NCBI GenBank assembly: GCA_038063775.1
Contig: JBBTUK010000009.1
Coordinates: 21,379 to 62,796, forward strand
DNA length: 41,418 nt
From: Patescibacteria group bacterium
Lineage (GTDB): Bacteria; Patescibacteriota; Minisyncoccia; Moranbacterales; UBA2206
Direction of reading: 5' to 3'
Both the position numbers and the translations under genes were made by a program. Of the stretch, positions 1,193 to 39,691 are shown piece by piece; positions within the stretch are counted from its first letter, which is position 1, and each line of letters starts with the position of its first letter. Under the pieces are notes generated by a model. That model was not told where the DNA came from and did not search any database. It saw nothing but the letters and a program-made list of their open reading frames with translations.

Positions 1193-1268
1193 CCCGGTAG
1201 TAGAATTTTGACTTATTTATTTACTAAATTTTCTCCCGGAGAAAATTGGTCAAAATTTCACTACCGGG
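1193..1268 (-). repeat. palindromic MITE-like element, subfamily A (76 bp), flanked by CATA/CATA (TATG on the gene strand)
   Basis: Arms are cccggtagtagaattttgac ... gtcaaaatttcactaccggg, with an internal hairpin aattttct-ccgg-agaaaatt. It is nearly the reverse complement of the copy at 18832-18907. It abuts the uvrB ATG. Confidence 0.85.
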
Positions 1269-2553: not shown

Positions 2554-2625
2554 CCCCGTAGTGAATTTTCGGCCGTCCCGCCGTGGCGGGACTGAAAATA
2601 TAAAAGCCGAAAATCTACTACCGGG
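2554..2625 (+). repeat. palindromic MITE-like element, subfamily B (72 bp), flanked by TTGA/TTGA
   Basis: Arms are ccccgtagtgaattttcggc ... gccgaaaatctactaccggg, with an internal GC hairpin gtcccgc-cgtg-gcgggac. The TTGA flanks are at 2550-2553 and 2626-2629. Confidence 0.85.
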
Positions 2626-3252: not shown

Positions 3253-3261
3253 TTCCCTTGA

Positions 3262-3297
3262 CCTGCCCGCAATGCTACGCGTAGCGTTGCAGCCGGG
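3262..3297. repeat. GC-rich 36-bp palindrome
   Basis: The sequence cctgcccgcaatgctacgcgtagcgttgcagccggg has a near-perfect dyad centred on tacgcgta. It is preceded by TTGA and has no T-run. Confidence 0.6.
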
Positions 3298-3416
3298 TCA
3301 GTAAAATCAAAGATATCAGCGAATACACACGAACCAAGTGGCCATCCCTCAATCAGTGGCCTAACATAACAAAAGTACTCGATCTTAAAGAAAAGATTTT
3401 ATTCTATTTTCTTATC

Positions 3417-5021: not shown

Positions 5022-5079
5022 TTGTTTTTGGATATATAATAGAAACACAAAATTCTTCTTCGTATAACCGCAACTTATG

Positions 5080-5190
5080 CCCAGTAGTGATCCGCCGAAA
5101 GTCCGATTGATTACTACTGATTAAACTAATAAAGCTACTAACTTTTCAATATATTTTCTGCCGTTAAAAAATAGGCGGACTACTACTGGG
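5080..5190 (+). repeat. palindromic MITE-like element, subfamily A variant (111 bp), flanked by TATG/TATG
   Basis: Arms are cccagtagtgatccgcc ... ggcggactactactggg. The TATG flanks are at 5076-5079 and 5191-5194, and the second contains the ATG of the next gene. Confidence 0.8.
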
Positions 5191-5191
5191 T

Positions 5192-6214
5192 ATGAAAAAT
5201 CTTTCGAGTCTGGATAAGAGTAATTTTAGACAAGTTATCATTGATTTCCCCAAGCAGTTTGAGCAGGGCTTTAAATTGGCAAAGGGCATAAAAATTAAAG
5301 GGCAATTCAATTCCTTAGTTGTTTCCGGCATGGGTGGATCTTCCTTGCCCGTTGATGTTTTGAAAATTTATTTGAAATCGCTTTATCGGAAAAATCCCAA
5401 AGAAAACAAACTGTTCACAGTATTTCAAAATCGCACTTACTCTCTTCCCCGCGAAGCCTATTACGGCGGACTTAATTTTATTTCTTCCTATTCCGGAACA
5501 ACCGAAGAAACTATTTCATCTTTAAGGGAAGCAATAAAAAACGAACTGCCGATTGTCGGATTTACATCGGGCGGAAAACTGGCCGAGCTCTGCCAGAAAA
5601 ACAAAATTCCCTGCGTAATATTTCCCAAAGGGATCGAGCCCCGCTCTGCTACCGGATATTTCTTCGCCTCAATGCTACAAGTTTTGGCTAATGCCGGAAT
5701 GATTGAAGATAAAAGCCGGGAATTAATAGCTCTGTCAAAAAATCTGCGGAAAGCTGTTTTGGAACTGGAGCTGGAAGGCAAAAAGATCGCCCAAAAACTC
5801 TTCGGAAAAACGCCCGTTATATACGCCCCCGCCAAGTTCGGAGCGCTGGCGATGATTTGGAAAATAAAAATCAACGAGAACGCCAAAACGCCGGCTTTTT
5901 ACAATGTCTATCCGGAACTCAATCACAACGAAATGGTCGGCTTTACTCTGCCACAAGGAAAATTCCATATCATAACGCTTATGGATAAAAATGACCACCC
6001 GCAAAATATCAAGCGGATGAAAATAACTGCCGCATTGCTTAGAAAAAAGGACATAGAAACAAATCTCATTGAAATGACTGATAAAAATATGTTTGACACT
6101 CTTTTTTCAACGCTTCTTCTCGGCGACTGGGTTTCCTATTACCTGGCTCTTCTCTACAAGCAAGACCCCGGCCCCGTCAAAATAGTAGAGGATCTGAAAA
6201 AACTGCTGGCTTAA
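5192..6214 (+). CDS. bifunctional phosphoglucose/phosphomannose isomerase (SIS domain)
   Basis: 340 aa with the SIS-type motif VVSGMGGSSLP. The architecture matches the archaeal/bacterial PGI/PMI family. Confidence 0.8.
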   Translation: MKNLSSLDKSNFRQVIIDFPKQFEQGFKLAKGIKIKGQFNSLVVSGMGGSSLPVDVLKIYLKSLYRKNPKENKLFTVFQNRTYSLPREAYYGGLNFISSYSGTTEETISSLREAIKNELPIVGFTSGGKLAELCQKNKIPCVIFPKGIEPRSATGYFFASMLQVLANAGMIEDKSRELIALSKNLRKAVLELELEGKKIAQKLFGKTPVIYAPAKFGALAMIWKIKINENAKTPAFYNVYPELNHNEMVGFTLPQGKFHIITLMDKNDHPQNIKRMKITAALLRKKDIETNLIEMTDKNMFDTLFSTLLLGDWVSYYLALLYKQDPGPVKIVEDLKKLLA

Positions 6215-10849: not shown

Positions 10850-11232
10850 TAGGTATAGGTTCTCACTTCTTCGAGAAGCCCGTTATTTTTTACGAAATCA
10901 ATAGTTAAACTTTTTTTGCTCGATATCTCGCCGGCGTTCAAACTGATAATTTTTTGGTAATCGCTGAAAATTTTGTCGCTGGCGCTGATTTCCGTTTTCA
11001 GCTTGGAATCAAAAAACTTTATCATATACTGGCCGTCAGTTTCCGTAATGTTGCTCCAAATATCTTTTATCTCCCTGCCCTGGTCCAGATAAACGAATCT
11101 CACAGGAAGGATGGCTTGGCTGAAATTAATATTTTGGGCTTGCGCTGCTTTAAACGTAAAGAGATTAATAATAAAAGCGGCCAGAACCGTCCCGCTTAAA
11201 ATAAGTTTTCTGCTTTTTAAGTTCACCCGCAT
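10849..11232 (-). CDS. small secreted protein, unknown function
   Basis: 127 aa with a signal-peptide-like N-terminus (LILSGTVLAAFIINLFTFKAAQAQ). Its stop overlaps the next gene's start. Confidence 0.55.
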   Translation of the reverse strand: MRVNLKSRKLILSGTVLAAFIINLFTFKAAQAQNINFSQAILPVRFVYLDQGREIKDIWSNITETDGQYMIKFFDSKLKTEISASDKIFSDYQKIISLNAGEISSKKSLTIDFVKNNGLLEEVRTYT

Positions 11233-11281
11233 TTTCAGCCTAAGGCTGATCCGCCTTGGGCGGATACCTTTTTAATTTTGA

Positions 11282-13572: not shown

Positions 13573-14223
13573 TTAGGTCGCTGTCAAAGTCATGTTTAAG
13601 GTGTAGCTTCCCGTGGTTTGGGCTCCCGGAATGGTTTGCGACAGGCTGGTGCCGGTCAGATCCCATTGTCCGGGCTTTGGAGCTCCGGCCGCGGCCGTCA
13701 TCAGATCAATGCTACTCACTGATCCTTCCACGAAAGCATCGCTTGTCCCCTTGGAAACATTGGTTGTAGCCGTTCCGCCGACGCCCGCGATGGTTCCCAC
13801 GCTCGGATCAATGGTCATTTGTCCGCCATAAGAATCCGTATCCACTCCATCCCCGGCGCTGGCCGTGGAATCGTTATAATCATAGTAATTTGTTCCATTG
13901 GACCAAGCGGCAGTCGCTCCGCTGGTAGCCGCGATATTGAGCGTCCAGGTATCGGTCGTCCCGCTGGGATTGGTAATGCGCATCCGTTCGCTGGAGGTGC
14001 CTAGCGTGGCCGCCGAGGCTTGATAAGTCATGGAAAAAGCCTTGGAGGGAAAAGCCACGCCAGGGCTAGTTACTGTATTTCCACTAGCGTCTACGATTTG
14101 CACATCCAGAGAGCCGGTTATGGATTGGGAAAATTCGGTCGTGTCGGAAGCTAGTGCCGCCAGAACTCCAGTCAGGACAGAAACCGCAAACACCAGCGAA
14201 ATAACAGTTATTAATTTACGCAT
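13573..14223 (-). CDS. secreted WxL-like module protein (paralog 1)
   Basis: 216 aa with a signal peptide, then GSLDVQIVDASGNTV..., TWTLNIAATSG, ...GQWDLTGTSLSQTIPGAQTTGSYTLNMTLTAT. The layout matches WxL-type surface domains: two W-x-L motifs and a C-terminal aG.Y...tlt segment. Confidence 0.65.
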   Translation of the reverse strand: MRKLITVISLVFAVSVLTGVLAALASDTTEFSQSITGSLDVQIVDASGNTVTSPGVAFPSKAFSMTYQASAATLGTSSERMRITNPSGTTDTWTLNIAATSGATAAWSNGTNYYDYNDSTASAGDGVDTDSYGGQMTIDPSVGTIAGVGGTATTNVSKGTSDAFVEGSVSSIDLMTAAAGAPKPGQWDLTGTSLSQTIPGAQTTGSYTLNMTLTAT

Positions 14224-14258
14224 GTTTGTTTTGTAATAATTAAATCGCCTGATTTTGC

Positions 14259-14930
14259 TTATGAAATAGACAGGACCATAGTTATGGAATAGCTGCCGGC
14301 CGCCTGGGAAGCAGGCAGTTTTTGGGTAATGTTGTCAGCCGCGCCGATGAAATCCCAGCGGCAGGTAGTGGCCGCGCCGGCCGCCGCCGACATGATGTCA
14401 ATGCTATTAGTCGTGCCTTCCACGAAAGAATCGCTAGTTCCCAAGGAAACATTGGTTGTAGCGCATCCGGAAACTCCGGTTATGGAACCCGTACTCGGAT
14501 TGACCGTCATCTGCCCGCCGTAAGAATCAGTGTCCGCTCCGTCCGTGTATCCCGAACCGTCATTGAAATCGTAATAAGCCGTCCCGGTTGTCCACGTGGC
14601 GGTTGTGGCGCTGGCGGCTAAATTAGCCGTCCAGATTGCTGTCGTTGTCGGATTGGAAGCCCGGACTCTTTCGGCCGAAGTGCCGAACTGCCCGGTGGCG
14701 TCCTGGGTGCTAAAACTGAAGGTTTTCGCTCCCAGGGAAATAGCCGGACTGGCTACTGTGGTGCCCGCCGCGTCCACGACATCAACGCTCAAAGAACCGG
14801 CGTTGATCGTCTGATTAAAAGTGGATGAGTTGCTGGCGAAGACTTGTATTCCGACCAAGAATACGAAGATCAGTGCCAGAACAAGCGATTTTTGGCCTAT
14901 TTTAGCCATTTTTCTGATTTTTGTTTTCAT
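14259..14930 (-). CDS. secreted WxL-like module protein (paralog 2)
   Basis: 223 aa: AGSLSVDVVDAAGTTV..., IWTANLAAS, ...CRWDFIGAADNITQKLPASQAAGSYSITMVLSIS. It aligns end to end with 13573-14223. Confidence 0.65.
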   Translation of the reverse strand: MKTKIRKMAKIGQKSLVLALIFVFLVGIQVFASNSSTFNQTINAGSLSVDVVDAAGTTVASPAISLGAKTFSFSTQDATGQFGTSAERVRASNPTTTAIWTANLAASATTATWTTGTAYYDFNDGSGYTDGADTDSYGGQMTVNPSTGSITGVSGCATTNVSLGTSDSFVEGTTNSIDIMSAAAGAATTCRWDFIGAADNITQKLPASQAAGSYSITMVLSIS

Positions 14931-15004
14931 ATTTTTGATGTAATTATTTAAAATTTGCTTTAAACAAAGCTTTTTTCGCTTTTAAGCCACTTCTTAGCTT
15001 TAGC

Positions 15005-15037
15005 AAAACAAAAAATGAATCCTCACCCCGAGAATTC
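15005..15037 (-). terminator. terminator-like hairpin inside the 5' leader of the WxL-like operon (candidate attenuator)
   Basis: The minus strand reads gaattctc-ggggt-gaggattc (8-bp stem) followed by attttttgtttt. It lies about 60 nt downstream of the predicted TSS and about 75 nt upstream of the 14930 ATG. Confidence 0.5.
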
Positions 15038-15102
15038 ACCCTAGATAGCCCCTTTATTGTCGTCTATGTCGTTTTATCCCCTTTTTAAGCTATTGTAATA
15101 CC

Positions 15103-15131
15103 ATTATACACGATATCAAGGATTGTGTCAA
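15103..15131 (-). promoter_or_regulatory. consensus sigma70 promoter TTGACA-N17-TATAAT
   Basis: The minus strand reads TTGACAcaatccttgatatcgtgTATAAT. The TTGA of the -35 box is the left flank repeat of the GIY-YIG element. Confidence 0.7.
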
Positions 15132-15417
15132 CCCCGCACTAACTTTCGTTCAAAGACTTTTTGATTCTTCTTCTTAATTGCGCCCAGGCTTGTCCAAATT
15201 GCTTTATTTGCTTTTCTCTTTCTTTTGCGTCCCACTCGGATAAATACGCTTCATAATACATGAGTTTCCAGATGTGTCCTTTTGTAGAAAAAGAATTTCC
15301 CTCATTGTGGTCAAAAAGTCTTTTCCGCAAGTTACTACTATATCCATAGTATAGCTCCTTGCGCTCATTTCTCAGGACATAAAAATAATGCATACAATAA
15401 CGAAAGTTAGTGCGGGG
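15132..15417 (-). mobile_element. 286-bp element with perfect 19-bp terminal inverted repeats carrying a GIY-YIG ORF, flanked by TCAA/TCAA
   Basis: The inverted repeat ccccgcactaactttcgtt (15132-15150) pairs with aacgaaagttagtgcgggg (15399-15417). The TCAA flanks are at 15128-15131 and 15418-15421. The ORF fills 255 of the 286 bp. Confidence 0.75.
15139..15393 (-). CDS. GIY-YIG nuclease family protein (single catalytic domain, COG2827/UPF0213-like)
   Basis: 84 aa: MHYFYVLRNERKELYYGYSSNLRKRLFDHNEG...YYEAYLSEWDAKEREKQIK, matching the GIY...YIG...R...H/N...E pattern. The stop and last four codons lie inside the inverted repeat. Confidence 0.85.
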   Translation of the reverse strand: MHYFYVLRNERKELYYGYSSNLRKRLFDHNEGNSFSTKGHIWKLMYYEAYLSEWDAKEREKQIKQFGQAWAQLRRRIKKSLNES

Positions 15418-17793
15418 TCAAGTGGCCGTTAGCGTCATACCAATGGAATAGCTGTCCGCTTGTTGCTGGGCCGGTATATCCTGGGTCAGCGCCACGCCCG
15501 TAAAGTCCCAGTAACAGCCAAAGGAGGTGGTGGACGTTAGAAGAGTTACACTGTTGCCCGCGTCAAAATAGGCAGCTGATCCTTTGGATGGTGAGACGGC
15601 GCCGCAACCCCCCTCCGGCGTTATTGTTCCCGCGCTGGGATCCACCCTTAGCCGGCCGTTAGCCGCCGTGTCATTGAAATCATAATTATAGGTTGCGCCT
15701 TGCCAAAGAGTCGAGGCGCCGCCGGTCGCTGCAATCGTAAGGTTCCAGTTTCCATTAGCTGTAGTATTGGTCAATCGAATTTTCTGGCTGGCCACGCCGA
15801 GCGTTCCAGCGGAGGTCTGTCCCACCCAGTCGAACGTTTCGGCGGAAAAAGAAACGGACGGACTGCCCACCGGTGTACCGCCCGAATCCACGATGTCCAC
15901 TGACAGCGTACCCGCAGAAAGCGTGATGGTCCCGGAAGAATAATCATTCACTTGGGAATTCACTCCGTCACTGACCAAGCCGTAGACATAATAGCTGCCC
16001 GCCGACATGCCGGCCGTATCCCAGGAACAAGTCGCTCCCGTGCCTTCGCCCGCCGAGGCGCAAGCACCCGTAATGGCCGTACCGTCCAGACCCGAACCAT
16101 TGGAATCCCAATAAAAGACCGCGTTAACGATGTTGTCAGAATCAGCCAAATCATAAGTGATGTTATACAGAGTGCCGATGGGCACGCTGTCACTCACCCC
16201 ATCCGGCTGGCTGACGGTGAGCGTCGGCCGGGCGTTGATGGTCACCACTCCCGGTGAATAGTCGCTGACTTCAGTGTTGACCGTGTCATTGACATCCCGG
16301 CCGTAAATATAATAAGTGCCGGGCGAGACGCCGGTCGTGTTCCAGGCGCAAGTGCCGCCCGAGGCTTCGCCCTGGTTCTGGCAGGCGGCAATGGAAGTGC
16401 CGTTGAGCCCCGTACCATCCGTGTCGTAATAGAAATCCACGGTAACCGTGCTGTCGGTGTCGGCCAGATTGTAAGTTATGTAATTATAAGTGCCGTCCTG
16501 GGCGATGGTATCACCGGTGCCGTCAGGCTGAGTGACAGTTAAAGTCGGCGCGTCGTTGATCCGGATCCGGCCGGTTGAAACATCAACGACATCCGGATTC
16601 ACTCCGTCATTGGCCACGCCATAAATATAGTAATACGTACTGAGACTCATGCCCTCGCCAAGAGGGCTGAAGGAACATGTTGCGTTGGTTCCCTCAATTT
16701 GGTTTTGACAGCTTGAGATGGCCGTGCCCCCGGCTCCGTTGCCGTCCGTTTCATAGTAAAAATCGGCGGTAGCGGTTCCCGCGTCGGCCAAGTCATATTG
16801 GATCTGGTAATTGCCTCCGTCCGCTACGTCCGTGTCCGAGGCTGGATTATCCACCGTGACGGTCGGCGGAGTATCTGCATAAGGTCTTAAAGCCAAGGTG
16901 ACCGCCGTCCACGAATCGCTTGTGGTGGTCGTGCCCCCACCGGCAAATGCCGCCGGATCATAGGCGCCGGAAGACCAGGTCGTATACCCGGCTCCGACCA
17001 TGCCGTCTTGGGTGTCATTCCCATTTGCCGCGCGGAAATCAGTGAGATATGACGCGGTGTAATTGCCGCCCGTTGAGCCGGATCCGGCGCCGGCTACATA
17101 AATCCACGCTCCGGAGGAAGTGGGCGTAATCGCCCCCGGATTTACAACCCGAGTATTTATCGCTCCGGCAGTGACTGCCGCGACATCAAGGGGCGTGCCT
17201 GCATCAACATTCCGGAACACATGAACAGACCAGGCGCGGCCGCCAGACGCGTCGCCGCCCGCGAGAATCACCGAGGTTTCCGGCGTCCCCGGCATAAACC
17301 GATACGCCACTCGGAGATTTGAGTCGTAAGAGTCGTTCTGATACAGCTCCGACCCGGCCAGTGTGTAGGCCGTTCCCCCACTATTATTGATCGTCAGCGC
17401 CTTGTTGGCTGTGTCCCCATTGGAAAACGCGACAATGACCAGATCGTCGGCCGCTGGCGTTGAAGCACTGCCGTTGGTGAGCGAAAAATTAACCGTCGTG
17501 TTGCCGCTAACACCGGCAGAGCTGCCCACCTGGCCTCCCACATAGGATACTGCCGCCAGAGCGGTGTGAATCCTTAACTTTTCCGGCAAATCCCGGATAG
17601 ACGCGTATTTATCCACGATGTCCGAACCGCTATCTTTTTGCGTAAGCCAAATTCTGTCCACGATTCCCCGGGTGCTGATGTAGGAATCTACCAGGGTCTT
17701 TACGAGATAAAAAGAGGCGTTGGAAAAAACCAGTCCTGTAATTACCAGAAATACTACCAGGAATCTGAATATTTTTCCGCTTCGTTTGCCCAT
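15418..17793 (-). CDS. large membrane-anchored surface protein: N-terminal TM, unknown ~280-aa domain, 3 tandem ~105-aa repeats, C-terminal WxL-like module
   Basis: 791 aa. The C-terminal 164 aa (GTLSVDIVDSGGTPV...NWNLTIAAT...CYWDFTGVALTQDIPAQQQADSYSIGMTLTAT) are paralogous to the two small proteins downstream. The TGA stop lies within the TCAA flank of the GIY-YIG element. Confidence 0.8.
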   Translation of the reverse strand: MGKRSGKIFRFLVVFLVITGLVFSNASFYLVKTLVDSYISTRGIVDRIWLTQKDSGSDIVDKYASIRDLPEKLRIHTALAAVSYVGGQVGSSAGVSGNTTVNFSLTNGSASTPAADDLVIVAFSNGDTANKALTINNSGGTAYTLAGSELYQNDSYDSNLRVAYRFMPGTPETSVILAGGDASGGRAWSVHVFRNVDAGTPLDVAAVTAGAINTRVVNPGAITPTSSGAWIYVAGAGSGSTGGNYTASYLTDFRAANGNDTQDGMVGAGYTTWSSGAYDPAAFAGGGTTTTSDSWTAVTLALRPYADTPPTVTVDNPASDTDVADGGNYQIQYDLADAGTATADFYYETDGNGAGGTAISSCQNQIEGTNATCSFSPLGEGMSLSTYYYIYGVANDGVNPDVVDVSTGRIRINDAPTLTVTQPDGTGDTIAQDGTYNYITYNLADTDSTVTVDFYYDTDGTGLNGTSIAACQNQGEASGGTCAWNTTGVSPGTYYIYGRDVNDTVNTEVSDYSPGVVTINARPTLTVSQPDGVSDSVPIGTLYNITYDLADSDNIVNAVFYWDSNGSGLDGTAITGACASAGEGTGATCSWDTAGMSAGSYYVYGLVSDGVNSQVNDYSSGTITLSAGTLSVDIVDSGGTPVGSPSVSFSAETFDWVGQTSAGTLGVASQKIRLTNTTANGNWNLTIAATGGASTLWQGATYNYDFNDTAANGRLRVDPSAGTITPEGGCGAVSPSKGSAAYFDAGNSVTLLTSTTSFGCYWDFTGVALTQDIPAQQQADSYSIGMTLTAT
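15913..16869 (-). repeat. three in-frame tandem ~315-bp coding repeats (aa ~309-627)
   Basis: The repeat units are PTLTV(T/S)QPDG...Y(N/D)LAD.D....V.FY(Y/W)D..G.G..GT.I..C......G..C.W.T.G...G.YY.YG...D.VN, each with two conserved Cys. Confidence 0.8.
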
Positions 17794-17798
17794 GATGC

Positions 17799-18767
17799 TT
17801 AATTTTCGCTGTAGCCGCTTACATAATTGAAGACTTGTTCGGATATTTTTTTCATCAGGTCTTCCGCCTCTCGTTTGTCCCTCCCGCTTACCATTACGGT
17901 CAAGATGTACGGCCGGTTCGGAGCGTAAATGATGCCCGAATCCATATACACATTTTTGTCCTCGGCGACGCCGATTTTGTGGGCATAGACCGTGCCCTCC
18001 GGCAATCCGCCTTTGAGATATTCGTCAAATCGGGTTTCCGAAAGATAAGCCAGGAGCTTTTGGGAACTCTCCTCTGACAGATATGAAGAATTATAAAGCG
18101 CCCGGAAATTAGCCGAGTATTTTTTCGCCCCGATTTCTCCTCCCGCTGAGAAAAAATCACCGGCTCCGAGATGTTCGTAAACATCGTAGATTTCCCTGGT
18201 TTCCAGATTTCTCACCAGGATAAAGTTGGCCGTGTTGTCGGAATCCACCAAAGCGCGGCGGACCAGATCTTCGATGGTAAAGATCGAGCCAGTCGGCTCC
18301 TTGAAGAGAGTTCCGAAGCTTTCTTCCTTGTCGGCCGCCATCAGAACCAGTTTATTGTCCCATTTCCATTCGCCCTTTTCAATCTTTTTGGCCACCGCCA
18401 TGGCCACCGGCAATTTGAGGAGGCTCGCCGGCCAGAATTGCGCGTCCTTGTTGATGGAGATATTGGCGCCGGTCGGCAAATATTCGAAATAGATAGATAT
18501 ATCTTTTTGGCCTTCGTATTTATTCAGCTCGTCCCGAAGCGGCTGGATGTTTATGATCAGGTCTTTCTGGTTTACTGATTTTCTAGCCGGATTCAGAAGT
18601 TGAAATTTGTCTTCCGTTTCTTCTGTTTGCTTTTTAGAGCCGTCCTTGATCTGGGTAAAATAGAATATTGTGAACAGATTCAAAACAACCAAAACCGCTA
18701 GAGCGGCAATAAAAAACTTTTGGTTATCAAGCTTTTCCGCGATTTTTTTGTTATTTTTTTCTTGCAT
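17799..18767 (-). CDS. class A beta-lactamase-like serine hydrolase, membrane-anchored
   Basis: It carries SxxK (PASLLKLP), SDN (DSDNTANF) and KxG (HKIGV) motifs. I trimmed the start to ATG 18767 (MQEKNNKK) because the ORF-track start at 18854 lies inside the repeat 18832-18907. Confidence 0.7.
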   Translation of the reverse strand: MQEKNNKKIAEKLDNQKFFIAALAVLVVLNLFTIFYFTQIKDGSKKQTEETEDKFQLLNPARKSVNQKDLIINIQPLRDELNKYEGQKDISIYFEYLPTGANISINKDAQFWPASLLKLPVAMAVAKKIEKGEWKWDNKLVLMAADKEESFGTLFKEPTGSIFTIEDLVRRALVDSDNTANFILVRNLETREIYDVYEHLGAGDFFSAGGEIGAKKYSANFRALYNSSYLSEESSQKLLAYLSETRFDEYLKGGLPEGTVYAHKIGVAEDKNVYMDSGIIYAPNRPYILTVMVSGRDKREAEDLMKKISEQVFNYVSGYSEN

Positions 18768-18831
18768 AGTGATGCTTATATTATACAATAATTTGCCAGA
18801 ATAAGCATTTTGATGATAGTTTATATATATG

Positions 18832-18907
18832 CCCGGTAGTGAAATTTTGACCAATTTCCTCCGGGAGGAAATTTTTATATTATTTAAGTCAAAATTCTAC
18901 TACTGGG
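18832..18907 (+). repeat. palindromic MITE-like element, subfamily A (76 bp), flanked by TATG/TATG
   Basis: Arms are cccggtagtgaaattttgac ... gtcaaaattctactactggg, with an internal hairpin aatttcct-ccgg-aggaaatt. The TATG flanks are at 18828-18831 and 18908-18911, and the second contains the trpS ATG. Confidence 0.85.
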
Positions 18908-18908
18908 T

Positions 18909-19919
18909 ATGAAAAGGATTTTTTCCGGCATTCAGCCGTCAGGCAACTTGCACCTGGGCAATTACCTTGGGGCCATCAAAAACTGGGTCAAGCTTCAAAA
19001 CGAGTATGACTCTATTTTTTGCGTGGTGGATCTCCACGCCATTACTGTTCCGCAAGATCCGGAGGAACTCAAGAAAAAAATCATCGAAGTGGCCAAAATA
19101 TATTTGGCCGCCGGCATAGACCCCAAAAAATCGGCGATTTTCATCCAATCGCATGTCCCCGAACACGCGGAGTTGGCGTGGATTTTGAATACTTTGGCCA
19201 AGATTTCCGAAATGGAACGAATGACCCAATTCAAGGATAAATCGGCCAAGAATAAAGAGGGCGTTGGTATGGGACTGTTCGATTACCCAGTGCTGATGGC
19301 CGCCGATATTCTTCTTTACGATACGCAAGTCGTCCCGGTCGGCGAAGACCAGCTGCAACACATTGAAATAACCAGGACATTGGCCAAAAGATTTAATACT
19401 CGTTTCGGCGAAACATTTGTGATTCCCAAAGCTTATTATATGGAAAATGAAGGAATGCTTGCCCGCCAAAGCCTTGGCGTCGGCGGGAGGATTATGGGAC
19501 TGGATGATCCAGCTAAAAAAATGAGCAAGTCGGCCGAGTCGGAATACAATTACATCGCCCTTACGGATTCCGAAGAAGCGGTGCGCAGAAAAATCAAAAA
19601 GGCCGTGACTGACTCCGGAACCGAAATAAAATATGCTGATGATAAACCGGCACTTAAGAATTTGATAAATATCTATTCTCTCTTGTCCGACAAAAAACCG
19701 CAGGAAATTGAAAAATTATATAAAGACAAAGGATACTCTGAATTTAAAACTGACTTAGCTGAAGTAATTATAAATTTCCTGAAACCTTTTCAGGAAAAAT
19801 ATAACGCTCTCTCGGACGAAGAAGTTCTAAAAATCCTCCGGGAAGGCGCGGAAAAAGTTCGTCCGCTGGCTAATAAAAAACTGGAAGAAGTAAAAAATAA
19901 AGTTGGATTTATTTTGTAA
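18909..19919 (+). CDS. trpS: tryptophan--tRNA ligase
   Basis: 336 aa: IFSGIQPSGNLHLGNYLGA (HIGH region) and KMSKS (KKMSKSAES). Confidence 0.93.
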   Translation: MKRIFSGIQPSGNLHLGNYLGAIKNWVKLQNEYDSIFCVVDLHAITVPQDPEELKKKIIEVAKIYLAAGIDPKKSAIFIQSHVPEHAELAWILNTLAKISEMERMTQFKDKSAKNKEGVGMGLFDYPVLMAADILLYDTQVVPVGEDQLQHIEITRTLAKRFNTRFGETFVIPKAYYMENEGMLARQSLGVGGRIMGLDDPAKKMSKSAESEYNYIALTDSEEAVRRKIKKAVTDSGTEIKYADDKPALKNLINIYSLLSDKKPQEIEKLYKDKGYSEFKTDLAEVIINFLKPFQEKYNALSDEEVLKILREGAEKVRPLANKKLEEVKNKVGFIL

Positions 19920-22579: not shown

Positions 22580-22652
22580 CCCCGTAGTAGATTTTCGGCT
22601 TTTATTTTTTTCAGCCCCGCCGCGGCGGGGCGACCGAAAATTCACTACGGGG
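22580..22652 (-). repeat. palindromic MITE-like element, subfamily B (73 bp), flanked by TTGA/TTGA
   Basis: Arms are ccccgtagtagattttcggc ... accgaaaattcactacgggg, with an internal hairpin gccccgc-cgcg-gcggggc. It is approximately the reverse complement of 2554-2625. Confidence 0.85.
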
Positions 22653-25200: not shown

Positions 25201-25304
25201 CCCCTACACCAACTTTTACAAAACAAGATAGAAGGTAGGAATTTTATAAAGAGATTTGTTCGCTTTATGATTTGCGGATTGCGTTGTAAAAGTTGGTGTG
25301 GGGG
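25201..25304. repeat. palindromic MITE-like element, subfamily C (104 bp), flanked by TTTA/TTTA
   Basis: Arms cccctacaccaacttttacaa ... ttgtaaaagttggtgtggggg match at 20 of 21 positions. The TTTA flanks are at 25197-25200 and 25305-25308. The arm resembles the GIY-YIG element inverted repeat (CCCC.CAC.AACTTT). Confidence 0.75.
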
Positions 25305-25540: not shown

Positions 25541-25569
25541 ATTATACACTATTTTCACCCTCAAGTCAA
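25541..25569 (-). promoter_or_regulatory. near-consensus promoter TTGACT-N17-TATAAT
   Basis: The minus strand reads TTGACTtgagggtgaaaatagtgTATAAT. The TTGA of the -35 box is the flank repeat of element 25570-25704. Confidence 0.65.
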
Positions 25570-25704
25570 CCCCGTAGTAGATTTTCGGCTCTTGCAAAGA
25601 TGTTAAGCTGCAGCTGACAGATATACTGCAAGGTAAAATATTTTATAATTTTTGTGGTATTTTTTAAGTCCCACTGGCGGGACGGCCGAAAATTCACTAC
25701 GGGG
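25570..25704 (-). repeat. palindromic MITE-like element, subfamily B long form (135 bp), flanked by TCAA/TCAA
   Basis: Arms are ccccgtagtagattttcggc ... ggccgaaaattcactacgggg, with an internal hairpin gtccc...gggac next to the GTGA arm. The right flank lies 2 nt from the recA stop. Confidence 0.8.
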
Positions 25705-26725: not shown

Positions 26726-26829
26726 CTGTAACCTGTAACCTGTAACCTGTAACCTGTAACCTGTAACTTAAAATATATAAAATTTAGATTTAAGAGGTTT
26801 TGGTTTTCAGGTTATAGATTGTGGGTTAT
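26726..26829 (-). promoter_or_regulatory. leader module: C/A-rich segment + AT spacer + 6 tandem heptamers (GTTACAG on the coding strand), ending 10 nt before the recA ATG
   Basis: The plus strand carries (ctgtaac)x6 at 26726-26767. The minus strand reads ataacccacaatctataacctgaaaaccaaaacctc...(gttacag)6 aaaatttatt ATG. A TGaTATAAT extended -10 lies at 26844-26852 on the minus strand. Confidence 0.6.
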
Positions 26830-39548: not shown

Positions 39549-39691
39549 CCCGGTAGTAGAATTTTGGCGTTTACACATGCTAGATTGACCAAAATTCCAT
39601 GAAATTAAAAATTTAAATTAGTTTACCGATTATACATGTCATATTTTTAAAGTTTTTTTCCAAAAAACTTAGCCGAAATTTCACTACTGGG
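39549..39691 (-). repeat. palindromic MITE-like element, subfamily A long form (143 bp), flanked by CATT/CATT (AATG on the gene strand)
   Basis: Arms are cccggtagtagaattttggc ... gccgaaatttcactactggg, with an internal hairpin aagtttttt-gg-aaaaaaactt next to the GTGA arm. It lies between the traX-like stop (TAG, then 1 nt) and the amidase ATG. Confidence 0.8.

Follow-up and report, generated by a model that had tools for sequence, protein, structure and literature searches.

Foldback repeats of Patescibacteria are likely miniature mobile elements with relatives that encode only a small GIY-YIG nuclease

The 72-bp repeat at positions 2554-2625 of a 41-kb stretch of DNA from a Patescibacteria group bacterium (the window, by which we mean the whole stretch analysed) raises two related questions: what this repeat is, and why its two arms, which otherwise pair with each other, differ at the same two bases in every copy. 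The genomes of Patescibacteria are very small and are believed to contain few mobile elements, and the genes of the window are housekeeping genes (uvrB, trpS, recA, ftsK, ssb, rpsF, efp, rpoB, rpoC and the gene for RNase J), with no conventional transposase among them. This stretch contains seven copies of the repeat, a coding relative and a ninth related element, and the family extends to about 100 further species. We argue here that the repeat is likely one copy of a previously undescribed family of non-autonomous foldback elements, similar to miniature inverted-repeat transposable elements (MITEs), which is present in many lineages of the Patescibacteria and whose autonomous relatives of ~315 bp encode only a GIY-YIG nuclease. 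No description of the family was found in the literature on its end sequences, on MITEs of Patescibacteria, or on GIY-YIG genes combined with inverted repeats or duplications; the only related literature found was the paper on the Ssn nucleases and a report on non-intron GIY-YIG insertions in rRNA genes of the candidate phyla radiation (CPR). The seven copies in the window are 72-143 bp each and are the following.

Positions 1193 to 1268, minus strand: class A copy of 76 bp, with CATA at 1189-1192 and 1269-1272 (TATG on the minus strand).
Positions 2554 to 2625, plus strand: class B copy of 72 bp, from which the question arose, made up of a GTAGTGA arm, a GTCCCGC/GCGGGAC hairpin, an A/T-rich spacer and a CTACTAC arm.
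Positions 2550 to 2553 and 2626 to 2629: left and right TTGA, the 4-bp target duplication of the preceding copy; the right one opens TTGACC-N17-TAAGCT.
Positions 5080 to 5190, plus strand: divergent copy of 111 bp with inner arms ATCCGCC/GGCGGAT and TATG on both flanks.
Positions 18832 to 18907, plus strand: class A copy of 76 bp with TATG on both flanks, the right-hand ATG (18909) being the trpS start.
Positions 22580 to 22652, minus strand: class B copy of 73 bp with TTGA on both flanks and a promoter-like TTGACT-17-TAAACT on the right flank from 22653.
Positions 25570 to 25704, minus strand: long class B copy of 135 bp with TCAA on both flanks, 2 nt past the recA stop codon.
Positions 39549 to 39691, minus strand: long copy of 143 bp with CATT on both flanks (AATG on the minus strand).

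One arm of every window copy starts with CCCNGTAGTGA, and the opposite arm, read on the other strand, starts with CCCNGTAGTAG. The pattern CCNGTAGTRR has 14 matches in the window, compared with 0.31 expected from shuffles, and these are seven GTAGTGA and seven GTAGTAG ends, one of each per copy. Pairing the arms places a G.T at position 10 and an A.C at position 11 in all seven copies, so that the fixed asymmetry described in a first-pass annotation of this DNA is present without exception. The annotation had also placed an internal hairpin directly next to the GTGA arm in all copies, which is correct for six of them; the copy at 5080-5190 has no clear hairpin there. The paired substitutions that it reported between the inner stems of sibling copies, GTCCCGC/GCGGGAC (2575-2592) versus GCCCCGC/GCGGGGC (22614-22631), and AATTTTCT/AGAAAATT in the copy at 1193-1268 versus AATTTCCT/AGGAAATT in the copy at 18832-18907, are real: the coordinates of the first pair are right, and both contrasts are two-sided and compensatory.

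The two-base swap is retained far beyond the window. One genome per species was scanned with a pattern that left both swap positions free as purines, and more than 117 stretches matched. The listed matches lie nearly all in bins of Patescibacteria (Nomura-, Zambryski-, Wolfe-, Yanofsky-, Portnoy-, Nealson- and Taylorbacteria, Paceibacterota and Saccharibacteria), and the copies among them come from about 100 Patescibacteria species. Of the 115 copies scored, 103 have GA on one arm and AG on the other; the remaining 12 consist of six copies of a symmetric AA/AA subfamily, five that are GA/GA or AG/AG, and one GG/AG. Copies in the same loci that the pattern had not picked, and in which any dinucleotide was allowed, are GA/AG in 12 of 13 cases, the sole exception being a false pair that spans nested elements. 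The swap is also retained in end families in which neighbouring bases are altered on both arms together, among them GTAGAGA/GTAGAAG, GTTGTGA/GTTGTAG, GGCAGTGA/GGCAGTAG and GGGAGGTGA/GGGAGGTAG. The tips of the elements (12-16 nt) are conserved across many candidate phyla, and a few end families are symmetric, among them that of the nuclease element of the window described below. No copies are present in the viral contigs that were searched. At four loci (L023, L025, L089 and L092; for example, L025:2778-2843), a symmetric subfamily with GTAGTAAA on both arms adjoins the ATG of genes that are unrelated to one another, mreB, an SDR gene and a dksA-like gene among them. Its orientation is the same at each locus; it is flanked by a repeat of TG only, and the final A of the element doubles as the first base of the start codon. 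A double stop codon (TAG TGA on one arm, TAG TAG on the other) was considered as the reason for the swap, but does not explain why the arms must differ; readings of the stem as a kink-turn or as a dif-like site were ruled out on inspection of the sequence.

The arms form an outer stem of 20 bp that consists of 9 bp, the G.T and A.C mismatches, and another 9 bp, and positions 10-11 open as a 2x2 internal loop under DNA energy parameters. Seven of the eight tested folds have z-scores of -3.7 to -7.0 (as single-stranded DNA, the two strands of the copy at 2554-2625 score -5.5 and -5.9), and the eighth, that of the 143-bp copy at 39549-39691, scores -1.76. Over an alignment of 97 distinct copies (A1), the outer stem is 92.6% paired, and two-sided changes at stem positions 13, 17, 18, 19 and 20 number 22, 37, 15, 40 and 48, respectively, with 91-100% of the pairs kept. 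The covariation score of the stem is 0.292, compared with 0.081 in shuffles, none of 500 of which reaches it, and with at most 0.065 when the partners are slid. The first-pass annotation had made its reading depend on a larger alignment, and both the asymmetry and the covariation survive there. The interiors, which average 33 nt, are folded too: their mean fold z-score is -2.5 against dinucleotide shuffles, 60% of them lie below -2, and in 61 of the 97 copies they contain two small hairpins on a tight three-way junction. Close siblings differ by six compensated stem changes versus one uncompensated single change, and their unpaired interior positions change about three times as often as the paired ones. 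Several inner-arm variants co-occur in the genome of the window, each complementary to its own partner, and the ends of the coding elements are complementary exactly to position 20. The view that the structure of the element is under selection for pairing is supported by these observations. Both strands fold equally well, and G.T (G.U) pairs are rare on each (32/891 and 30/879), a pattern that favours DNA over an RNA with a single polarity.

Features that the first-pass annotation did not contain, namely flanking duplications, a pattern in the insertion sites and coding relatives, bear on what the folded structure serves. A perfect 4-bp direct repeat flanks all seven window copies (TATG three times, TTGA twice, AATG and TCAA once each). 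In other genomes, 102 of 113 distinct copies have an exact flank repeat of 3-6 bp, which is 4 bp long in 59, 5 bp in 30 and 3 bp in 12, with ~5 four-base matches expected by chance; the common form of the 4-5 bp duplications is of the T..A type. The elements are therefore mobile. Besides these repeats, there is a tandem array of four identical 75-nt copies whose neighbours share a single CTTG (L116:2207-2525), and in the nested insertions L114:5933-6150 and L091:5740-5985 one element lies within another, one of them having entered a TTGA inside the arm of another copy. In groundwater runs, the bins that contain the element have a several-fold higher depth than their surroundings, and metagenome contigs break at the copies and continue into many different flanks exactly at the element edges; the inter-arm joints in these contigs stem from other copies with different interiors. 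Hainich groundwater (a 0.1-um filtered sample) also yielded a contig with the trpS gene of the window. Copies occupy the same site upstream of rnhB in two species (L064 and L068).

The coding relatives connect these ends to a gene. A search for complementary arms 70-400 bp apart found a coding element (first line below), and a search at 150-7000 bp gave only adjacent or nested copies; two further elements lie in the window.

L086, positions 5070 to 5391: coding element of the family, 322 bp, having the family ends with the swap and TATG on both flanks; a 91-aa protein fills the interior.
Positions 15132 to 15417, minus strand: coding relative of 286 bp, having perfect 19-bp inverted repeats (CCCCGCACTAACTTTCGTT) and TCAA flanks at 15128-15131 and 15418-15421.
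Positions 25201 to 25304, no strand assigned: non-coding inverted-repeat element of 104 bp, having the ends CCCCTACACCAACTTTTAC and TTTA on both flanks.

The 91-aa protein matches the Pfam GIY-YIG domain PF01541 at 2.3e-17, and the only gene of the element at 15132-15417, located at 15139-15393 on the minus strand, encodes an 84-aa GIY-YIG nuclease that matches it at 1e-11. Residues Y6, Y17, G19, R27, H31 and E63, which are the catalytic residues of GIY-YIG enzymes, are invariant in the alignment of the nucleases. The element at 15132-15417 is inserted at TTGACA-17-TATAAT, overlapping the TGA stop of the upstream gene for a 791-aa surface protein, and a form of it that contains only the repeats is seen in groundwater contigs as the joint 15146>15403. 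The ends of the element at 25201-25304 are closer to those of the nuclease element than to the ends of the seven copies, and the element probably represents a miniature of this second end family.

A scan of metagenomes with three of the nuclease proteins gave at least 546 relatives, of which the best 80 loci, with 81 reading frames, were examined. Both family arms are present at a fixed spacing from the reading frame in 45 of these 81, and hence the family ends and the nuclease gene are physically linked. Collapsing left 46 distinct coding elements of 291-363 bp, typically ~315 bp, with proteins of 84-91 aa. Although these were found via protein similarity alone, 43 of the 46 carry the GA/AG swap; a duplication of 3-5 bp flanks 36, being TATG in 20 of those, and 33 lie immediately next to the ATG of a host frame that is 60 codons or longer. 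When the GTGA arm is upstream, the flanking ATG is in frame with the nuclease (14 cases), yielding MPGSENSTAIMF..., and when the TAG arm is upstream, it opens an eight-codon leader whose TGA overlaps the ATG of the nuclease. At its other end, the nuclease frame stops 18-22 nt short of the host ATG or shares an ATGA with it. Judged by this arrangement, the coding element appears to borrow the start signal of the host and then to hand translation back to the host gene. With its 20-bp terminal inverted repeats, its duplications, seven non-coding copies within 41 kb and at least 45 coding elements with the same ends, the family has the features of a MITE and its autonomous relatives. No transposase or other gene family recurs near the 117 copies: when 2020 reading frames were clustered, the only groups to emerge were large housekeeping superfamilies at inconsistent positions. 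GIY-YIG homologues without the family ends are found at L047:1515-2073, L085:5587-6133 and L063:7619-8000, within a 16S rRNA gene or next to partly duplicated tRNA-like sequences, so the same clade of nucleases occurs in other types of insertion too. A study of insertions in CPR rRNA genes described GIY-YIG genes in non-intron insertions that apparently are not spread by homing, and L047 is an instance of such an insertion.

The flank repeats of the elements fall on signals for gene expression. We examined 226 element sides, counting a -35 hexamer when it had at least five of six matches and a -10 box at 16-18 bp. Such a promoter starts exactly at the element edge on 23 sides, compared with 0.12 expected; it is one base off the edge on 6-7 more, and almost never 2-30 bp off. 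On 14 sides, compared with 0.26 expected, the edge coincides with the start of an extended -10 box (TGnTAnnnT), and on nine with that of a plain -10 hexamer. The promoter faces either arm equally often (12 vs 11). Roughly one insertion in two directly adjoins the upstream edge of a -35 or -10 box, and others lie on a start codon. In the window, the promoter scan placed TTGACT-17-TATAAT, which begins at 25569 on the minus strand, at the edge of copy 25570-25704 and TTGACT-17-TAAACT at that of copy 22580-22652, whereas the ATG next to the TAG arm of the four copies with TATG or AATG flanks is the start of uvrB (copy 1193-1268), a phosphoglucose-isomerase-like (pgi-like) gene (ATG at 5192, in the right flank of copy 5080-5190), trpS and an amidase gene (copy 39549-39691, which sits between the stop codon of a TraX-family gene and this ATG). 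At all of these sites, the promoter box or codon that the insertion split is rebuilt by the target duplication. The exact landing at promoter edges could be due to a preference for TTGA-type targets, to tethering to bound RNA polymerase, or to the survival of harmless insertions, although the last by itself does not predict so sharp a peak at the edge. Three further observations concern these sites. Positions 15-20 of the inner arm often read TTGGCA, TTGACA or TTGCCA in most copies, which gives each end an inward-facing -35-like hexamer, and the commonest target is TTGAC. The left ATG (18829) of the copy at 18832-18907 opens a 27-codon frame that crosses the whole element (MPGSEILTNFLREEIFILFKSKFYYWV; 18829-18912) and whose TGA overlaps the trpS ATG; the frame is not kept in the sibling upstream of uvrB. 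At many loci (for example, L038, L048, L064 and L113), -10 boxes lie only 6-9 nt upstream of start codons, suggesting that many mRNAs in these genomes are leaderless or nearly so.

These results can be combined in the following model. When the element is exposed as single-stranded DNA, its two ends would pair into a stem of 9 bp, 2 mismatches and 9 bp; in miniature copies, the small internal hairpins would close this end-to-end stem. The nuclease, which we infer to read folded single-stranded DNA, would recognise this form as its characterised relatives do: the Ssn nucleases, single-domain GIY-YIG proteins of ~94 aa, bind their hairpin repeats only as single-stranded DNA and cut upstream of them in a strand-specific manner (Chenal et al., Nat Commun 2025, PMC11893778). 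The expectation of the first-pass annotation that a folded nucleic acid is selected for recognition by a protein, as with IS200/IS605 ends or REPs, is in this respect supported, by the pairing evidence and, through the analogy with Ssn relatives that cut folded single-stranded hairpins, by the presence of a GIY-YIG nuclease gene between the same ends. The hairpins of the top and bottom strands of a perfect palindrome are identical. The swap makes the hairpin of the top strand (G.T then A.C) unlike that of the bottom strand (A.C then G.T), thereby giving a strand identity to an otherwise palindromic element, and plausibly allows the nuclease to tell the two strands apart. An orientation cue of this kind is what a hairpin nuclease with strand specificity requires, and this would account for the persistence of the swap amid drifting neighbouring bases. 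Insertion would duplicate 3-5 bp of the target, mostly 4 bp; coding elements would enter at host start codons, whose start signal would then serve the nuclease, and miniature copies, presumably mobilised by the nuclease in trans, would land on start codons or at the upstream edges of -35 and -10 boxes. In both cases, the host signal would be re-created by the duplication. The known activity of GIY-YIG nucleases is the hydrolysis of DNA and, to our knowledge, none joins it; rejoining of the strands by host ligation or repair is therefore assumed. Whether this amounts to a new class of transposon, with an 85-91-aa GIY-YIG nuclease in ~315 bp as the sole protein, a folded single-stranded intermediate, a two-base swap that sets the strand, capture of start codons, and miniatures aimed at the edges of sigma-70 boxes, is a tentative proposal to which we give slightly less than even weight.

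Several features of the data have also been considered under other explanations, two of which concern the structure itself. The repeats could be functional RNAs, that is, leader or intercistronic hairpins for the control of translation, 3' stabilisers or RNase III sites, in which case G.U and A.C would be features of an RNA. In its favour, a co-directional gene precedes five of the seven window copies, four copies adjoin a start codon, RNase III could act on a stem of this length, and an RNA helix can accommodate stacked G.U and A+.C. We nonetheless regard this explanation, which the first-pass annotation had also offered, as very unlikely: apart from the equal folding of both strands with rare, symmetric G.U pairs, roughly one copy in two is located upstream of a -35 or -10 box, in either orientation, and so is not part of the downstream transcript, and the flanking duplications indicate mobility at the level of DNA. 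Moreover, a search of Rfam gave no family match for the element, with nothing credible at E up to 5 and only tRNAs reaching the gathering score; no RNA runs contain the locus of the window. It could also be argued that there is no selection on the structure at all, the covariation being the product of template switches during replication that correct palindromes, and the swap being inherited from one founder copy. A single event of quasi-palindrome correction can indeed change both arms, and 5 of the 115 copies have become symmetric (GA/GA or AG/AG). Such correction, however, should erase the swap, which at least 90% of the copies keep, including lineages with diverged neighbouring bases. In addition, homogenisation is not uniform, since stem position 4 is unpaired in 44% of the copies, while positions 17-20 are paired in 91-97%; the freedom of position 4 means that a uniform arm-homogenising process cannot explain the pattern. 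This and the roughly threefold excess of changes at unpaired interior bases make the explanation highly improbable.

The other two explanations accept the structure or the mobility but assign it to another agent. An ordinary MITE could be moved by a DDE transposase acting on double-stranded ends, most likely one of the IS1380/piggyBac type, with the GIY-YIG gene as a passenger or addiction module. The tips (CCC...GGG) and the 4-5 bp duplications of the T..A type fit such an enzyme, as does the use of both element orientations; piggyBac has CCC tips and TTAA duplications with TCAA and TATG variants, and IS1380, its prokaryotic relative, is listed in ISfinder with 'Cc' ends and 4-5 bp repeats. 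Against this, tblastn with ISEcp1 TnpA gave no match to an IS1380-like gene in ~0.9 Mb around the 117 copies, near which, as noted above, no transposase family recurs, and the ~315-bp elements have room for the nuclease only and yet show clean duplications at many different genes. A model with double-stranded ends also leaves unexplained both the opposite 2-nt swap in several diverged end families and the selected folding of the miniature interiors, and we consider it unlikely. Equally unlikely, in our opinion, is that the repeats form a REP/RAYT-like system domesticated by the host and kept by selection at the host level, in which they serve as promoter insulators or upstream elements, in the restriction of incoming single-stranded DNA during transformation, or as recombination sites. 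This would be in line with the conservation of the tips across candidate phyla, the same-site copies upstream of rnhB, the proximity of the elements to promoters and the DNA uptake on which Patescibacteria are thought to rely, and domestication has been proposed by the authors of the Ssn study (PMC11893778). Recent activity is indicated, however, by the nested and tandem copies and by very abundant variants with identical arms, and the coding copies act like selfish genes that borrow host start codons. It should be noted that domestication is compatible with a family of nuclease-linked foldback elements and is not a strict alternative to it.

The proposal of nuclease-linked foldback elements has to be weighed against a number of points. 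The flanking duplication left by a hydrolytic GIY-YIG enzyme would depend on an additional, assumed host step, and the activity ascribed to these predicted nucleases is that of their characterised relatives. Among solved structures, the best matches to the nucleases are 1zg2 (1e-6) and 1ywl, both UPF0213 (cd10456) proteins, with SLX1 next. The nuclease element of the window has symmetric ends and a different core, and may not encode the enzyme that moves the seven copies. Covariation of the ends could also arise if each end family co-evolved with its own nuclease on double-stranded DNA. The window copies (three plus, four minus) have no orientation bias with respect to the replication strand, unlike IS200/IS605, and the contigs of eight groundwater runs contain no empty sites, in the form of a joint that skips a whole copy. 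The likeness to the Ssn system also has its limits: Ssn repeats are local hairpins of 20-50 nt with an oriented flank beside the gene, whereas here the two 20-nt ends pair together and a fixed tandem mismatch provides the orientation, and neither flanking duplications nor branched miniatures, start-codon capture or insertion at promoter edges have been described for Ssn.

If the proposal is correct, the chemistry of transposition would be that of a hydrolytic nuclease combined with host repair, unlike the DDE, HUH, tyrosine and serine mechanisms, and the coding elements would be, as far as we know, among the smallest autonomous mobile elements. Should the tiny GIY-YIG protein mobilise these elements, the Ssn single-strand nucleases would be linked to real transposition, the conserved mismatch in the stem would acquire a testable role in the choice of the strand, and there would be a route by which mobile DNA can persist in compact genomes without breaking genes, with the duplication rebuilding the start codon or promoter box. 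The nucleases are also candidate tools for acting on single-stranded DNA in a sequence- and structure-specific manner. In practical terms, the repeats break metagenome assemblies at predictable places.

Some other features of the window deserve mention. The region 14000-18000 has a G+C content of 0.49-0.56, compared with about 0.43 elsewhere, and contains genes for large surface proteins rich in threonine and glycine, without a Pfam match. Immediately upstream of recA, at 26726-26774, a CTGTAAC heptamer is repeated in six to seven tandem copies. Two other GC-rich hairpin sequences, at 3259-3300 (which reads TTGACC...GGGTCA) and 11232-11264, look like further repeat families: in groundwater runs, the bins containing them have 4-10 times the depth of their surroundings, and many contigs continue into unrelated sequence at their edges.

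Comparison with known systems shows partial likeness to several of them. Guide-pairing as in IS200/IS605 was rejected for these elements: their ends are true inverted repeats, a given flank sequence is present at either edge and is seen with both element orientations, and siblings that are almost identical have different flanks. With IS1380/piggyBac they share CC(C) tips and a 4(-5) bp duplication of the T..A type, including TCAA and TATG, but no DDE transposase was found, and the coding elements of 291-363 bp are too small for one. Integron attC sites are likewise recognised as a folded single strand, conserve only their outer boxes, carry a fixed irregularity in the stem that picks the strand, and may have a branched terminal structure; this candidate was rejected because the ends read CCCNGTAGT, with neither R boxes (RYYYAAC...GTTRRRY) nor an integrase or cassette array, and the copies are dispersed and flanked by duplications. 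The Correia elements of Neisseria are also short, non-coding and located in intergenic or promoter-side positions, with terminal inverted repeats, a short duplication, long hairpins and subfamilies of the interior; they differ in their TA duplication and in having no known coding relative, whereas the relative here encodes a GIY-YIG protein and not a DDE transposase. A conserved swap between left and right ends is unusual among bacterial MITEs in general, and so is insertion at the edges of promoter boxes and on start codons. REP/REPIN-RAYT systems resemble the family in their abundant intergenic hairpin repeats, with GTAG near the 5' stem end and inverted pairs that form a longer hairpin, and probably in being served by a small nuclease-type enzyme that reads folded single strands. 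REPs, however, lack a duplication, GTAG here lies 4 nt inside a CCC tip, and the partner is a GIY-YIG protein; with duplications present, no Y1 (HUH) RAYT gene in the window and none recurring near the 117 copies, this assignment was rejected.

The closest characterised system is Ssn/SRM (Ssn family, cd10448). In both cases, a single-domain GIY-YIG protein of ~90 aa (84-91 aa here) is encoded between cognate inverted repeats (arms on both sides in 45/81), and there are hundreds of non-coding hairpin copies per genome, nearly all intergenic, whose recognition depends, or here would depend, on orientation. In Neisseria, the Ssn nucleases and their NTS repeats have been proposed to restrict incoming single-stranded DNA during transformation; neither Patescibacteria nor duplications appear in that paper, whose authors remark on the insertion-sequence-like layout of ssn genes flanked by cognate repeats (PMC11893778).

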